From Escherichia coli (GTDB taxonomy: Bacteria; Pseudomonadota; Gammaproteobacteria; Enterobacterales; Enterobacteriaceae), in NCBI RefSeq assembly GCF_024298765.1, contig NZ_CP101215.1: 4,236 bases of DNA, one strand, 5' to 3'. The first letter of the stretch is position 1; every line of letters starts with the position of its first letter. The position numbers were made by a program, and so were the translations under genes. The notes below the pieces were generated by a model. It was given only the letters and a program-made list of their open reading frames with translations, was not told the origin of the DNA and ran no database searches. Shown piece by piece: positions 1 to 4,236 of this stretch.

Positions 1-29
1 CGAACGGGTCAAAACGGCAAACTTTCTCA

Positions 30-76
30 TCCAGAAAACGCCTCACGGGACGCGGAATTTTTTCGTGTCCCGTGAG
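30..76 (-). terminator. Putative rho-independent terminator downstream of mobA
   Basis: Seen in sequence: imperfect inverted repeat 42-54 (ctcacgggacgcg) and 64-76 (cgtgtcccgtgag), 12 of 13 pairing, with a 9-nt loop. On the minus strand it is followed by GCGTTTTCTGG (about 30-41). It lies about 35 nt past the mobA stop codon (110-112). A second small hairpin, cgggg-tgcag-ccccg at 91-105, sits directly after the stop. The U-tract is short and interrupted, so the call is tentative. Confidence 0.35.
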
Positions 77-109
77 ACGTTGGCGGGGTTCGGGGTGCAG
101 CCCCGGATA

Positions 110-2329
110 TCACATACTCATGCCCCGGTAATGTCCGGGGCGTCGTTGTTGTTGCCTGTGCTGTTCGTCCCGCTTCCATTCATGCCAGGTCTGATTAAAT
201 CCGAGTTGACGGAAGAGATAATCCGGCATCTCTTCCGGTTTGTTGATGGCAGCAAAAAGCGTGTCCTGACAGCCCTTAAGCCTGAACTGCATCAGCTTCG
301 GTTCCGGTGGGTACGGAGTATCAGCATCACGGTTTATGGCCTCACCGTAACCTGCCAGGTGTATCCCGTTCTCTGTGATGATGCTTACCATCAGATGACT
401 GTAATCCGGCGACGGAAGCGCAAGAACGGGACGCAGCTCGTCCTCCAGGCGCACAAAACCGACAAGCATTTCCTCCGGCCCTTCGCACAACAGCAGATTC
501 AGCGTCCTGCTGTTTCGCTCTGTCGAAAAGACAACGGGCATGAGTTGCTCCGGTGCCGCATAAGCGGTGACGTCCACCCGGTGCGCTGACGGCAGCGGAG
601 AGGCTGCGGGCCTGCGGTCGTCGCTGAAATAAAAATTATCCGGCCAGTGATGCGGCAGCGCCGGAAAACCGTAAGAGGGCCACCCCTGGCGCATCTGTTC
701 CAGTACATGCCGGACCGTCGCACCGGAATACATTCTCACACGCTCAGGCCGCGCCATCGTCTCATGAGATTCTGGCATTCCCTCACGTATATCCGAGACC
801 ATCACAGCCCCGCCTGGCGACAGGTAAACATTCACCGGGTCATGAACACTCTGGGGGTAATGCGCCAGCTCATCACCCCATACCGTGAATTCTCCGGCTC
901 TGTTACTCAGCATCATGTAGCGGGTTATCCTGCCCGTTCCCGGCTCTCTGGCACGCCCCAGCTCCGTAATAACCCCGGCTAATGCCGTTTCTCGGCTCAG
1001 GCGATGGTTATCATGGTGTTTCAGCCGTGCGTCATATTCCTGTTCCTTCCGGCGCGCTTCCGCTTCGGCTTCCTCCCTGCGCCGCTCCGCTTCCCGTGCT
1101 GACAGTTTTTCTTTCAGCTCTGCCATTCCCGGCGAAATCCACGTATTCCACTGCGTTTCAAAGGCCTGACGACGGACGGGAATGTCCCGTTCTTTCACGG
1201 CCCTGTAGGTGCGGAGAAGAGATTCAATCTGTTTCTCGAGTTTCCAGAAGCGGAGTTGTCTTTTGCGGTATTCCGGTTCAGCCCATGTCATCAGGGGAAG
1301 CTCTGACAGGATGGACGCTACCGGACGGGCTTTTCTGAGTCCGGTCATCTCTTTTTCGAGAATATCCCGCTCTTTCACCAGCGCATTCCCCTCACGTTTG
1401 ATGTCGTTTGCCTTCCCGTTCATCGCCACGAACTCCGGTGTCATCTCCCATGCGTTCCCGCATTCCTGCGGCAGTGTGGCAATGAATTCCCGCAGGGTAT
1501 CCGCTGAGGCATTCGCGGCGGGAATGGTCAGATTAAGGGCTTCCGCTGCACGACGTGCGGCATCGCTGAGTTCCCGTTTCCGCACGTTCTCCTGTACCTG
1601 GATGACTGCCAGCCTTGTGCGGGAAACCTGTATTTCCAGGTTAAGGCTGTTAATCAGGCGGTTCTGCTCACCGCGTTCTGTTTCCATGCCCCGTTTTTCC
1701 ATCGCACAGGCAGCCTTTCCGAGGTGAAGGCCCGGCGCTTTCTCCAGTCCCTGACGCTCGTATGAACGATGGTCTATCTCTTCCTGGTAGCCGGCGTTCG
1801 CAAGCGCTCTGTTCGCATGGTCAGCCCATGATGCGCGCCACGTCTCGGCGAGTGCCCGGTCGTTCCAGTCCCTGACCTTTCCTGCGAATCCCGTTTCCCC
1901 GACAGCTCTCGTGGTCAGCATGATGTGTGCATGGGGGTTGGTCCGGTCCATATGATGGAACGCCACATCGGCAATCATGCCCCGACTGACAAAGTTTTCC
2001 CGGACAAAAGCGAGAACGGCCTCCCGTGCGGCCTCGCGGGAAATCTCACGGGGAATGGCGAGTTCAATCTCCCTTGCCAGCTGGGAGTTCCGGCGCTGTT
2101 CGGCTTTCTCGACCGCATTCCAGAGAACGGAACGGTCACCACACCAGGACGGTGCATTCGCAGGGGTGAGAATGACCGCATCATCAACGCCGCGTTTACG
2201 GGTGTAATCGTGGATTAATCCGGTACGGTCATCGGGTATGACAGAGCCGGAACGGTAGGCAGCAGAAGCAACGGCACTGTAGCCGTTTTTTCGCGAAATG
2301 ATTTTCATGCTGAGATGATAAATCGCCAT
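110..2329 (-). CDS. mobA: MobA/MobL-family (MOBQ-type) conjugative relaxase with a long C-terminal extension of unknown function, about 739 aa
   Basis: A continuous 768-codon minus-strand ORF (110..2416) in the supplied track. I place the start at the internal Met (ATG at 2329-2327) because the protein then begins MAIYHLSMKIISRKNGYSAVASAAYRSGS, the conserved N-terminus of MobA/MobL relaxases (compare RSF1010 MobA, MAIYHL...), with the catalytic Tyr region near the N-terminus and a 3-His metal motif HHMDRTNPHAHIML. A WADHANRAL motif and a charged, coiled-coil-like middle section (REAERRREEAEAEARRKEQEYD) follow. The C-terminal roughly 260 residues (about 110..890) have no motif I can assign. 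Stop TGA at 110-112. Established knowledge: the MobA_MobL family signature. Inference: start codon choice. Confidence 0.9.
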   Translation of the reverse strand: MAIYHLSMKIISRKNGYSAVASAAYRSGSVIPDDRTGLIHDYTRKRGVDDAVILTPANAPSWCGDRSVLWNAVEKAEQRRNSQLAREIELAIPREISREAAREAVLAFVRENFVSRGMIADVAFHHMDRTNPHAHIMLTTRAVGETGFAGKVRDWNDRALAETWRASWADHANRALANAGYQEEIDHRSYERQGLEKAPGLHLGKAACAMEKRGMETERGEQNRLINSLNLEIQVSRTRLAVIQVQENVRKRELSDAARRAAEALNLTIPAANASADTLREFIATLPQECGNAWEMTPEFVAMNGKANDIKREGNALVKERDILEKEMTGLRKARPVASILSELPLMTWAEPEYRKRQLRFWKLEKQIESLLRTYRAVKERDIPVRRQAFETQWNTWISPGMAELKEKLSAREAERRREEAEAEARRKEQEYDARLKHHDNHRLSRETALAGVITELGRAREPGTGRITRYMMLSNRAGEFTVWGDELAHYPQSVHDPVNVYLSPGGAVMVSDIREGMPESHETMARPERVRMYSGATVRHVLEQMRQGWPSYGFPALPHHWPDNFYFSDDRRPAASPLPSAHRVDVTAYAAPEQLMPVVFSTERNSRTLNLLLCEGPEEMLVGFVRLEDELRPVLALPSPDYSHLMVSIITENGIHLAGYGEAINRDADTPYPPEPKLMQFRLKGCQDTLFAAINKPEEMPDYLFRQLGFNQTWHEWKRDEQHRQQQRRPGHYRGMSM

Positions 2330-2377
2330 TTCTGCCGTAATGCCTTTTTGCCGTTTTCTTTCAGCCCCGCAGGGCGC

Positions 2378-2425
2378 ACACAATCGAAACGAAGTGAAGA
2401 TTGTATAAGTGCGCACTTCGTGATA
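2378..2425. other. Candidate origin of transfer (oriT) with MOBQ-type nick motif, overlapping the divergent mobA/mobC promoter region
   Basis: Seen in sequence: inverted repeat ACAATC (2380-2385) and GATTGT (2399-2404) with a 13-bp spacer, followed one base later by TAAGTGCG|CAC (2406-2416). This matches the RSF1010/R1162 oriT nick core GTAAGTGCG|CCCT, which I recall from memory. A second inverted repeat, acgaagtg (2389-2396) and cacttcgt (2414-2421), brackets the putative nick. The position between divergent mobA and mobC is the canonical MOBQ arrangement. The strand and exact nick position (predicted between 2413 and 2414) are inferred. Confidence 0.55.
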
Positions 2426-2449
2426 TGCCGTGCATTATGCCAGCTCAGT

Positions 2450-2477
2450 TTTTAAACTACCAGTGACGAGCTAAAAT
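2450..2477 (+). promoter_or_regulatory. Putative mobC promoter (-35 TTTAAA, -10 TAAAAT)
   Basis: Seen in sequence: TAAAAT at 2472-2477 with TTTAAA at 2450-2455 (16-bp spacer), about 30 nt upstream of the mobC ATG at 2508; AGGAG Shine-Dalgarno at 2495-2499. By-eye hexamer match only. Confidence 0.25.
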
Positions 2478-2507
2478 GCGATTTTTCACCGCGCAAGGAG
2501 TCACGAA

Positions 2508-2783
2508 ATGAGCAGAACACTCGAACAGAAGATTGCTGAAGCTGAGGCCAGATTGCAGCGCCTGAAGGCGAAGAGCCGGAGCCTGGACACTGCGCAAAAA
2601 GTCATTGTGGGAGCAGCCATGCTGGCGAGGGTACGGAGGCCGGAAGAGGCGCAACTGCGTGCGTTCCTGCTCCAGTTCCTGCGAAAGGAAGTCACAAGAC
2701 AGGCCGATGTGAACCGGCTACAACCACTGATTAACGAGCTGGAGAAGCTACCAAGACCACCTGCGAAACCGCAGAACGGATAA
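2508..2783 (+). CDS. mobC: MobC-family relaxosome accessory protein (91 aa)
   Basis: ORF 2508..2783 with a good RBS (AGGAG 2495-2499). The protein is small and basic, and it contains QKVIVGAAMLARV, which resembles the conserved RKVLVGAMILAKV segment of RSF1010-type MobC (recalled from memory). It is divergent from mobA with the oriT-like sequence in between, as in MOBQ systems. Confidence 0.8.
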   Translation: MSRTLEQKIAEAEARLQRLKAKSRSLDTAQKVIVGAAMLARVRRPEEAQLRAFLLQFLRKEVTRQADVNRLQPLINELEKLPRPPAKPQNG

Positions 2784-2952
2784 GCCCCGGCGCGTAAGTG
2801 CCACATGCACCACCGGACGCCTTTGCGCTTCCTCGCACATTCGCTCGCTACGCTCGGTCATGAGGCTGCGGCGAGCGCTACCACCGCAATCACGAGGAAA
2901 CCAGCGCCATTGCTGGGCGGAACCGGAAAAACCGCAGGAACGCCAACAGCTC

Positions 2953-2974
2953 AAAAAAGCGCCGAAAAGGCGCT
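2953..2974 (-). terminator. Putative rep terminator hairpin (short stem plus T6 on the minus strand)
   Basis: Seen in sequence: plus 2958-2974 forms a-gcgcc-gaaaa-ggcgc-t, a 5 to 6 bp GC stem with a 5-nt loop. On the minus strand it is followed by TTTTTTGAG (plus 2951-2958). It lies 15-35 nt downstream of the rep stop codon (2989-2991). The stem is short, and the element overlaps the presumed origin. Confidence 0.35.
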
Positions 2975-2995
2975 GTTATCTGATAAGGCTATTTG
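2953..2995 (-). other. ColE2-type origin of replication (Rep-primed ori) immediately 3' of rep
   Basis: The minus strand reads CAAATAGCCTTATCAGATAACAGCGCCTTTTCGGCGCTTTTTTGAGC, starting in the last codons of rep. From memory, the ColE2-P9 minimal origin contains AGATAAGCCTTATCAGATAACAGCGCC just downstream of rep; the exact base-by-base match is not verified here. Placement directly after the rep stop fits the known ColE2 architecture. Confidence 0.6.
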
Positions 2996-3897
2996 TGCAT
3001 TGCCCAATTACGGATCGTATTTCGATGTACATCCAGCATCGCCGCAATAGCTTTCTGAGAATATCCATTCTCCAGCATACATAGCGCCATGAAACGCTTG
3101 TCCTCGTAGGCTTCGCCTTTAGCAAGGCCACCTTTCCGGCCTCGAGCGGCCTGTACAGCGGAAAAGCCTTCCGGTGAGAATTTTCTGTGCGTGTATTTCG
3201 CAATGCTCTTGCCAATAGCCCGGCATTCAGCCAGTGAAAGAGGAACGGGAAGCGATGCGTTGTACATTTCGACACGCTGGATCACGGCATCAAGCCACTG
3301 TGAGAATGCTGGCCATCCCTGACGAATCGCTCTGTAAGCCCATTTGCGCGTCATTTCGAACAGGTGGCAGTTTCGCCCCATCCCGTAATGTTTATCGATG
3401 CTACGACGCTCTGAGGCGCTCAAATCGAGATAATCTGCCAGTTCATCGAGGGTATAGGCTTCCTCGCGCCACTCCATCACCTGCCATTCCAGGTGGAACG
3501 GATTTTTGCAAATCAGTCCGCTGTAGTTCACATCAGCACAAAGTTTCTCACACAGCGAACGTTCAATCGCGGCAGCATATTTCAGCGCCTTAACCGACGC
3601 ATCAGGCGCGGTTCTCACGGCGATATTGAGTGCATAGAGCAGGTGAGCGTGTCCGTTCACAGGATTTTTAACGGTGATGTTCGGCGCGGGGGCGTTCCGG
3701 TCGCTCCAGTCAATCGCTGCCCCCTCGCGGTCAACGTCAAAAACCAGCCAGAACTGCGCATGAGGCTGGTTCTGCTGGATGTACCGCGCAAGAAGCGCAC
3801 GCCCTTTGCCGGAGATGCGAAGGCCGAAAGCGAGATCATCCGTGTGATAGGGACGGTGGGGTAAATTTTCTTCGAAGTATTGAAGCGCGGCGCTCAT
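2989..3897 (-). CDS. rep: ColE2-family plasmid replication initiator / plasmid-specific primase Rep (302 aa)
   Basis: ORF 2989..3897 (-). RBS GGAAGGAA about 10 nt upstream of the ATG at 3897-3895; stop TAG at 2989-2991. The protein has long stretches I recognise from ColE2-P9/ColE3 Rep: YIQQNQPHA, DWSDRNAPAPNITVKNPVNGHAHLLYAL, VRTAPDAS, YAAAIERSLCEKLCADVNYSGLICKNP, YTLDELADYLDLSA, LFEMTRKWAYRAIRQGWPAFSQWLDAVIQRVEMYNASLPVPLS, ECRAIGKSIAKYTHRKFSPEGFSAVQAARGRKGG. The C-terminal tail (…ENGYSQKAIAAMLDVHRNTIRNWAMHK) looks like a helix-turn-helix, consistent with origin binding. Confidence 0.92.
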   Translation of the reverse strand: MSAALQYFEENLPHRPYHTDDLAFGLRISGKGRALLARYIQQNQPHAQFWLVFDVDREGAAIDWSDRNAPAPNITVKNPVNGHAHLLYALNIAVRTAPDASVKALKYAAAIERSLCEKLCADVNYSGLICKNPFHLEWQVMEWREEAYTLDELADYLDLSASERRSIDKHYGMGRNCHLFEMTRKWAYRAIRQGWPAFSQWLDAVIQRVEMYNASLPVPLSLAECRAIGKSIAKYTHRKFSPEGFSAVQAARGRKGGLAKGEAYEDKRFMALCMLENGYSQKAIAAMLDVHRNTIRNWAMHK

Positions 3898-3996
3898 GTG
3901 TTACGATTCCTTCCAGGTTATCGACCGACATCGCCCCTGTATTTTCGTGACAGTCTTGCCGGATAGGCACGAATTTCAGGGGCGTTTGTTTTTTCT
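3880..3996 (+). ncRNA. Putative antisense RNA (ColE2 RNA I-like) complementary to the rep mRNA leader and start region
   Basis: Established knowledge: ColE2-type replicons control Rep translation with an antisense RNA of about 115 nt (RNA I) complementary to the rep 5' leader. Seen in sequence: a strong plus-strand terminator (stem 3932-3939 with 3977-3984, then TTTGTTTTTTCT) ends at 3996 inside the rep leader. The 5' end is inferred from the expected length; no convincing promoter was identified by eye. Confidence 0.35.
3932..3996 (+). terminator. Rho-independent terminator (hairpin plus T-run) on the plus strand within the rep leader region
   Basis: Seen in sequence: CGCCCCTG (3932-3939) pairs with CAGGGGCG (3977-3984), a perfect 8-bp GC-rich stem around a 37-nt loop that may fold further. 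It is followed immediately by TTTGTTTTTTCT (3985-3996). Confidence 0.5.
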
Positions 3997-4054
3997 GGCG
4001 CTTACCCTACACCCAAACGCCAAACCCTGTCGATCCTTCCCCAAAACCCGATCC

Positions 4055-4082
4055 ATTTACCATAACTCCCGTTGTACGTACC
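4055..4082 (-). other. Xer (XerC/XerD) site-specific recombination core site, cer/psi-like with 6-bp spacer
   Basis: The minus strand reads GGTACGTACAA-CGGGAG-TTATGGTAAAT. Compared with the ColE1 cer core as I recall it (GGTGCGTACAA-TTAAGGGA-TTATGGTAAAT), the XerD arm is identical and the XerC arm differs at one position. The central region is 6 bp, as in dif and psi, rather than the 8 bp of cer. Confidence 0.6.
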
Positions 4083-4236
4083 CTCTAAAACGCTCTCAGA
4101 CGCGTTCTGACGCAAAAAACGCAAAAAGACAAGGAAACACCAGGCTGAACCAGAAAAATGCGTCAGAATCGTTTTTAGGGCGCTGCATAACTATGCACGA
4201 AAGCGATGCGCGATCGGTTTCGACCGTTCAGAAGCG
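4083..4236 (-). promoter_or_regulatory. Putative Xer accessory sequences (cer-like), including an ARG-box-like palindrome; truncated by the window edge
   Basis: Established knowledge: cer-type sites need about 180 bp of accessory sequence on the XerC-arm side, with an ArgR box about 100 bp from the core. Seen in sequence: palindrome TGCATAACTATGCA at 4184-4197, about 105 bp from the XerC arm, matching TGnAT-N4-ATnCA of the ARG-box consensus at 8 of 10 core positions. Also a 10-bp inverted repeat, TTCTGACGCA (4105-4114) and TGCGTCAGAA (4159-4168), flanking an A-rich stretch. Confidence 0.4.

Follow-up and report, generated by a model that had tools for sequence, protein, structure and literature searches.

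A long reading frame antisense to the 3' end of a plasmid mobA gene is almost certainly a by-product of mobA codon usage

Long antisense ORFs that are in register with the codons of the real gene facing them, the so-called shadow ORFs, are a well-known artefact of gene finding. The closest described relatives of the plasmid studied here are the MOBQ42 plasmids of the ColE2-like, ColE9-J type (Garcillan-Barcia et al. 2019, PMC6856555), and both the C-terminal similarity of MOBQ4 relaxases to the SogL primase and the finding that the best helpers are MPF_I plasmids have already been stated in the same work (PMC6856555). It is known that SogL is itself transferred in conjugation (PMC8406263).

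The stretch of DNA that was analysed (the window, 4,236 nucleotides) is a whole circular plasmid of ~4.24 kb, which matches NZ_CP063498.1 with 3 differences. The following features are referred to below:

110..2329, minus strand: mobA, the true coding sequence, encoding a relaxase of the MOBQ family (739 aa; ATG 2327-2329, stop codon 110-112)
1691..2278, minus strand: the MobA_MobL relaxase (nuclease) domain, MobA aa 18-213 (Pfam PF03389, 237 bits)
113..1000, minus strand: the domain resembling the SogL C-terminus, the last ~296 aa of MobA and the region opposite the antisense ORF
65..589, plus strand: the antisense ORF of 174 codons (GTG start, TGA at 587-589), judged to be a non-coding shadow ORF
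3884..4236, plus strand: the stop-free upstream continuation of the same frame in circular reading, judged to be a lineage-specific accident and no part of a gene
31..81, minus strand: a hairpin (37..81) with a U-run after it (31..36), just 3' of the mobA stop codon and containing the GTG at 65-67
2508..2783, plus strand: a mobC-like ORF of 91 aa, divergent from mobA, with no Pfam match above the cut-off

The plasmid shares with the MOBQ42 group the N-terminal MobA_MobL/MobQ domain of its MobA, the SogL-similar C-terminal part of the same protein, a ColE2-type Rep, the Col156 typing and, putatively, the small divergent mobC-like gene (PMC6856555). The Rep has matches to PF03090 (6e-44) and PF08708 (1.8e-5), and in PLSDB the nearest record carries the type Col156. 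The counterpart of the mobC-like ORF is called a 'mobilization protein' in related records, and the gene in the same position of a MOBQ41 plasmid (L008) is annotated as 'relaxase accessory protein MobC'. The difference is that our plasmid lacks the colicin operon, which in the colicin relatives sits at the window junction, with matches covering only 60..4233. From the near-identity to ColE2/E9-type plasmids we infer membership in MOBQ4/MOBQ42.

The earlier note on this DNA had described the 174-codon, GTG-initiated ORF at 65..589 of the plus strand as lying entirely opposite mobA and as most likely spurious. The ORF is present in the sequence as described, and 480 of its 525 nt do face mobA; the first 15 codons (65..109), however, lie outside the gene, the stop codon of which occupies 110-112, and fall within the hairpin 37..81. 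The codons of the ORF coincide with the mobA triplets (65 mod 3 = 110 mod 3), and it thus resembles other shadow ORFs in being in the register of the sense gene, in having a length within shuffle expectation and in lacking selection, conservation and homologues. It differs from them in nothing essential: its 5' end reaches 45 nt beyond mobA into the hairpin, and in the present lineage the frame is open across the whole intergenic region. Our data leave little doubt that ORF 65..589 is a chance by-product of mobA codon usage and no gene, and that selection acts on the minus strand only.

The length of the ORF is explained by the codons that mobA avoids. In the same-register antisense frame stops are possible only opposite TTA, CTA or TCA, which are almost unused by mobA (8 of 740 codons), and therefore long stop-free stretches arise opposite the gene, while the other two plus-strand frames contain 28 stops each. 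When mobA was shuffled synonymously, so that both the MobA protein and the mobA codon usage were preserved, the longest antisense stop-free run had a mean of 235 codons, and 93% of the shuffles reached or exceeded the observed 158 codons. The ORF is no more than the stretch from the TCA codon at 587-589 to the end of mobA, with the antisense frame continuing for a few codons past the gene into the downstream hairpin, where a GTG is present by chance. The earlier note had appealed to the frequency of antisense ORFs in GC-rich DNA; the artefact reading holds, but the cause does not, the window being only ~55% GC. The cause of the ORF length is the same-register frame together with the rarity of TTA, CTA and TCA in mobA, and not GC-richness as such.

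The same register defeats the periodicity of GC3, which had been proposed in the earlier note as a means of confirming the coding strand. This analysis was carried out and did not separate the two frames (GC1/GC2/GC3 of 0.65/0.40/0.62 versus 0.63/0.41/0.67), because GC1 and GC3 swap between a gene and its same-register antisense. Codon usage favoured mobA only slightly, with log-odds per codon of +0.06 in the mobA frame and -0.07 in the antisense frame. Substitution patterns, in contrast to GC3 periodicity, are able to tell a gene from such a frame.

These patterns, the second means that had been proposed, support the mobA frame alone. Across 20 homologous loci, many of which are close relatives and hence not independent, the dN/dS ratio was 0.14-0.32 in the mobA frame versus 0.32-2.1 in the antisense frame, where it was ~0.9-1.0 in most of the comparisons that were not near-identical and had enough substitutions. 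Substitutions fall mostly at the third position of mobA codons (for example 14/13/30 and 66/46/93 over positions 1, 2 and 3), and at 88% nucleotide identity the antisense product retains 74% amino-acid identity versus 84% for MobA. Premature stops interrupt the antisense frame in relatives at the window-equivalent position 488 (the colicin-E2-type plasmids), at 116/308/362/410 and at others; there are 4 such stops in MOBQ41 plasmids and 5 in sogL, and one locus (L013) has lost the stop codon of the antisense ORF itself. The frame is intact in the closest relatives and over the 142 codons that could be aligned to the sog genes of IncK2/Z, both as predicted by the shuffle null. The result is a clean negative, and it decides which strand is coding in the part of mobA with the least annotation.

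Among the alternatives, the one that survives best is that a non-coding antisense RNA regulating mobA is transcribed from 65..589 on the plus strand, the ORF being incidental. The ColE2-type plasmids do use an antisense RNA elsewhere, for the control of rep (PMC6856555), and the plus strand carries two terminator-like hairpins at 120-143 and 210-237, both of which are consensus matches only. However, a consensus scan found no sigma-70-like promoter anywhere in the window, and an Rfam search gave no match of note, the sole one in the region being to a snoRNA model with an E of 0.51. Nor do the synonymous sites of mobA show an extra constraint: in the three informative ColE2-type comparisons (L004, L005, L013) the dS of the overlapped segment (codons 580-739) is 0.109-0.306, which is equal to or above that of most other mobA segments and shows no dip. 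Thus we regard such an RNA as very unlikely.

It could also be argued that ORF 65..589 is a genuine young gene, dual coding and antisense to mobA, perhaps in a longer circular form. The window contains no in-frame stop upstream of 65, and around the circle (3884..4236 followed by 1..589) 313 codons are open; counted from the ATG at 3896, the frame crosses the region between rep and mobA, ends at 589 and encodes 309 aa. The 448-nt intergenic part is free of stops in the frame of the ORF beyond shuffle expectation, only 0.34% of mononucleotide shuffles doing the same. The intactness of the ORF in its nearest relatives would fit this idea as well, and so would the few annotation pipelines that have called homologous ORFs of 115-145 aa. 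Against it stand the antisense dN/dS of about 1 and the premature stops given above, the mobA dS that is not lowered in the overlap, and the fate of the extension in related plasmids. Among the relatives compared, the 313-codon frame is open only in the window and in NZ_CP063498.1. In plasmids that are 98.6% identical the extension is lost through two 1-bp indels (as in the comparison with L002) and the disappearance of the ATG at 4193, and the substitutions there are spread evenly over the codon positions (8/9/8, hand count); three loci (L002, L014, L015) lack any start codon 5' of the GTG, and the colicin plasmids interrupt the circular frame at window 60/4233. The 309-aa circular ORF was therefore rejected as a gene, since close relatives lack the frame and its starts and no codon-position bias is seen.

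The expected signals of expression and the expected relatives of a protein are missing too. Consensus scans detected no Shine-Dalgarno motif before the starts at 65, 80, 95, 131 and 182 and, as noted, no promoter-like site in the window, and the GTG at 65-67 is buried in a strong hairpin. The 174-aa product matches no Pfam and no NCBIfam family, has no distant homologue and gave nothing in a PDB sequence search. Only 3 matches to it were found among 5.8 billion proteins, all of them short gene calls with 73-79% identity, all from its own plasmid family and all homologous ORFs of the 115-145 aa already mentioned, so the product has no true homologues; together with the substitutions, this upholds the view that the ORF is spurious. 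The exact product has never been called among 15e9 proteins, although the DNA is public and the exact MobA is found on at least 14 contigs. AlphaFold2 predicted the ORF product with a pLDDT of 34.3 versus 86.6 for the MobA tail, the former from a shallower alignment (8 versus 15 sequences, with X at stop positions). Taken as a new, lineage-restricted gene antisense to the mobA tail, the frame from ATG 3896 to 589 is to our mind extremely improbable, and the same holds for a young gene in the shorter form. One of the 3 matches is a 'hypothetical protein' called on a contig that cuts mobA, which should serve as a warning to annotators.

Finally, the notion that mobA is over-extended, the true MobA being shorter and the 3' part of the gene no part of it, is next to impossible: it has on its side that the last 362 aa lie outside every Pfam and NCBIfam model and that NZ_CP063498.1 annotates the tail separately, but the tail is under purifying selection, shows protein-level homology with SogL (E 4e-53) and with MOBQ41 relaxases (E 2e-82), is predicted to fold confidently and belongs to a 739-aa product that is the standard annotation. 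The split in NZ_CP063498.1 arises because the origin of the record, with an extra A, falls inside mobA, and annotators should be aware that only the last 362 aa of the gene are listed there, as a 'hypothetical protein'.

With ORF 65..589 read as a shadow of mobA, the protein that faces it deserves attention. MobA matches Pfam MobA_MobL at 2.3e-70 and the NCBIfam MobQ equivalog with 260.9 bits against a cut-off of 200, and the gene is annotated as mobQ in near-identical plasmids; the exact 739-aa protein is present on at least 14 public contigs and belongs to a cluster of 3771 members. The earlier note had held that the part of mobA under the ORF has no recognisable function. It is correct that the last 362 aa have no Pfam or NCBIfam model, and a PDB sequence search with the tail was also empty, but the region is homologous to the C-terminus of the SogL primase: the tail aligns with residues 946-1246 of the 1255 of SogL with 34% identity over 305 columns (BLASTP, E 4e-53). 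A word-indexed protein search with the tail returned at least 7 close matches, and SogL and MOBQ41 were reached through exhaustive HMMER and tblastn. The latter found the tail in 2472 plasmid records, including MOBQ41 relaxases with ~41% identity and SogL or 'LPD7 domain-containing' primases with ~34% (E 4e-47), and HMMER matched 60 cluster representatives, those of full length close to their C-terminus.

Sequence comparison thus indicates that the MobA tail is a real, conserved protein domain, common to the SogL primases of IncI1-type (MPF_I) plasmids. In the SogL/SogS primase (IncI1: ColIb-P9, R64) and the 'LPD7 domain-containing' or TraC-type primases the last ~300 aa are homologous to those of MobA, the shared domain sits close to the C-terminus of the full-length proteins, and its carriers are conjugation proteins of plasmids that have, or are mobilised by, I-type transfer systems. 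The difference is found upstream, where the primases have a DUF5710-Toprim-LPD7 primase part and MobA has its relaxase. The tail would accordingly be a domain, predicted to fold, for which Pfam holds no model; the finding is modest and has been published in outline.

The domain may bind single-stranded DNA and/or recruit MobA to the secretion system of the helper plasmid. It could be that the SogL-like tail is a portable module by which relaxase and primase alike are brought to I-type conjugation systems, an idea that is half-known already and would account for MPF_I plasmids being the best helpers; we rank it as more likely than a lineage-restricted antisense gene. The tail can in this respect reasonably be put forward as a candidate determinant of helper specificity towards I-type conjugation systems. 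Fold searches with the model of the tail gave only weak matches, to OB-folds and generic small beta-barrels, and we do not claim an OB fold. By analogy with SogS and RepB', we looked inside mobA for an in-frame start preceded by a Shine-Dalgarno motif, from which a separate C-terminal polypeptide could be made, and saw nothing convincing.

The hairpin into which the 5' end of the ORF reaches has a more ordinary role to offer. The minus-strand RNA of positions 20-112 folds with an MFE of -41.4 kcal/mol (z = -4.85), a stability that none of 200 shuffles reached. The position of the hairpin 37..81 and its U-run suggests that it is probably the intrinsic terminator of mobA. A hairpin module of ~60-110 bp is kept in ~400 plasmid records, including plasmids without the present mobA tail.

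The 174-codon antisense ORF (65..589, plus strand, GTG start), judged most likely spurious in the earlier note, is not a genuine feature. The DNA there codes on the minus strand, for a C-terminal domain that resembles SogL and belongs to a MOBQ42 relaxase; this domain is known in outline already. The judgement is borne out by the substitution patterns and homology searches that the earlier note had itself named as grounds for refuting a real gene. The window (4236 bp) is an entire small plasmid of E. coli. It matches NZ_CP063498.1 (4237 bp; replicon type Col156, relaxase type MOBQ) over its full length, with three differences: A/G at 350, C/T at 484 and an extra A in the record at 1226. The window contains three genes:

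110..2329, minus strand: mobA, 739 aa, Pfam MobA_MobL at aa 18-213, NCBIfam MobQ equivalog (260.9 bits, cut-off 200)
2508..2783, divergent from mobA: mobC-like ORF, 91 aa
2989..3897, minus strand: rep, ColE2-type, PF03090 and PF08708

With this gene content the plasmid probably belongs to the MOBQ42 subgroup defined within MOBQ4 plasmids by Garcillan-Barcia et al. 2019 (PMC6856555). The extra A of NZ_CP063498.1 (L001 among our loci) falls exactly at that record's own start/end, within mobA, and of MobA its gene table has just the final 362 aa, entered as a 'hypothetical protein'; both look like an artefact of how the record was circularised or annotated. A weak, sub-threshold Rfam PK-repBA match at 3862..3985 on the minus strand (28.8 bits against a gathering score of 45, E 0.0018) covers the first rep codons and the leader upstream of them, a region reportedly under antisense RNAI control in ColE2-type plasmids (PMC6856555).

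The ORF is indeed present, with a 174-aa product, but three details depart from the earlier note. There is no in-frame stop upstream of 65 within the window. Nor does the ORF lie wholly opposite mobA as had been claimed: mobA ends at 110-112, therefore the first 45 nt of the ORF are outside the gene, in a strong hairpin beyond it. Third, the ORF and mobA share a common triplet register, and a stop in the same-register antisense frame is possible only opposite TTA, CTA or TCA. Since these codons are scarce in mobA (2/0/6 among 740), the plus frame of the ORF meets just 8 stops across the gene, whereas the two remaining plus frames meet 28 each. When the synonymous codons of mobA were shuffled with the MobA protein and codon usage kept, the antisense frame stayed open in its longest run for 235 codons on average (sd 66), and in 93% of shuffles this run equalled or exceeded the observed 158 codons. 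The length of the ORF is no more than chance; it is simply the interval from the last TCA codon (587-589) to the mobA end.

Which strand is under selection was examined over the 159 codons opposite the ORF in 20 homologous loci: near-identical plasmids of 4.2-4.7 kb, colicin E2/E9-type plasmids (88-95% nucleotide identity), MOBQ41 plasmids (about 55%) and sog-type primase genes of IncI1, IncK2/Z and related plasmids. The data support only the mobA frame. Substitutions fall mostly at mobA codon position 3 (e.g. 14/13/30, 66/46/93 and 65/42/105), and Nei-Gojobori dN/dS is 0.14-0.32 in the mobA frame in all comparisons with computable dS. In the antisense frame it is 0.32-2.1 overall, 0.9-1.0 in most comparisons other than the near-identical ones, and 0.68-0.76 in three comparisons among the most distant, whose synonymous sites approach saturation. 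Where nucleotide identity is 88%, amino-acid identity is 84% for MobA and 74% for the antisense product. The colicin-E2 group has a premature antisense-frame stop at window-equivalent 488; 4 such stops occur in MOBQ41 plasmids, 5 in sogL and 2 in Mixta/Enterobacter primases, and one locus (L013) has lost the ORF's own stop. The synonymous divergence of mobA in the overlapped segment is at least that in most other segments, therefore there is no hint of a second constraint. The proposed GC3 check was run and is uninformative for these two frames (GC1/2/3 0.65/0.40/0.62 for mobA, 0.63/0.41/0.67 for the ORF). Along mobA (110..2329), dS is strongly mosaic against L004, L005, L013 and L014 (e.g. 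0.00, then 0.31 in the next segment with the same relative), which suggests within-gene recombination among MOBQ42 plasmids.

The homology searches agree with the note's suspicion. The 174-aa product has no match in Pfam or NCBIfam and only three among 5.8 billion proteins (115-145 aa, 73-79% identical), all from the same plasmid family. The one that was traced had been called on a contig that cuts mobA, and thus the gene-caller was left with the antisense frame alone. Neither the exact 174-aa sequence nor the 309-aa circular form described below was found among 15 billion proteins, and Pfam has no match for the latter; at least 14 contigs carry the exact 739-aa MobA, whose cluster has 3771 members. 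No Shine-Dalgarno motif was found at any ORF start candidate, nor any promoter-like site. AlphaFold2 gave the ORF product a pLDDT of 34.3 with all residues below 50, from a shallower alignment (8 sequences, X at stops).

On the circular window the frame of the ORF is open from 3884 across the junction to 589 (313 codons), giving 309 aa from an ATG at 3896 that overlaps the rep start codon on the opposite strand. Within the 448-nt rep-mobA intergenic region the frame has no stops, compared with 4-6 in the other five frames, and only 0.34% of mononucleotide shuffles match such an open run. However, in a 98.6% identical relative (L002) two 1-bp deletions fall at window positions 3989 and 4015 and the ATG at 4193 is gone; the 25 substitutions listed for the extension are spread 8/9/8 over codon positions, thus showing no coding bias. 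No start codon upstream of the GTG is found in L002, L014 or L015. Colicin-encoding relatives match only window 60..4233, which puts their colicin operon exactly at the junction of the window, inserted within the extension. The open extension is thus not conserved, and we regard it as having arisen by accident in this lineage.

The MobA tail opposite the ORF is predicted to be folded (last 303 aa, mean pLDDT 86.6). By tblastn its last ~296 aa match 2472 plasmid records, including MOBQ41 relaxases (~41% identity) and the C-termini of proteins annotated 'LPD7 domain-containing protein', 'DNA primase' and 'SogL DNA primase' (~34%, E 4e-47); by BLASTP it aligns with residues 946-1246 of the 1255-residue annotated SogL of p15A44 (E 4e-53). 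When 1.84 billion cluster representatives were searched exhaustively with HMMER, 60 relatives emerged, the full-length ones matching near their C-terminal end; in the primases the domain comes after DUF5710, Toprim and LPD7. Earlier work has reported both that the C-termini of MOBQ4 relaxases resemble SogL and that MPF_I plasmids are the most efficient helpers (PMC6856555); SogL itself is known to be transferred during conjugation (PMC8406263). We infer a putative role of the tail in ssDNA binding and/or in recruitment of MobA to I-type transfer systems. Pfam has no model over the SogL-like domain (113..1000, minus strand). Its first beta-rich sub-domain carries the motif ...L.NR.G..T.WG..L... 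and is doubled in some relatives, e.g. P0013, an 824-aa relaxase; the domain was also noted in P0012, P0020, P0041, P0064 and P0066.

Directly after the mobA stop lies a conserved non-coding module (window 1..110, core 45..103; L022 158-217; L023 920-1027). Its very stable hairpin (37..81, minus-strand RNA, z = -4.85) is followed by a U-run. The module (60-110 bp, 80-94% identity) occurs in about 400 plasmid records, among them ColpVC plasmids of 2.1 kb and a Col156 plasmid that encodes a different MobA/MobL, of 516 aa, and has the stop of that gene 10 bp from the module. Its probable role is that of a terminator, although the wide spread suggests that it could be another kind of element, for instance a single-strand initiation site. 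The 36-kb IncFIA/FIC plasmid NZ_CP075668.1 contains a 232-bp remnant (L007 2501-2732) of the 3' end of mobA (window 102..333, 93.5% identity), with MFS-transporter and aminotransferase genes nearby; a 5.6-kb MOBQ plasmid (L006) has an MFS-transporter gene close to its mobA 3' end. These observations may point to past exchange of cargo between large and small plasmids.
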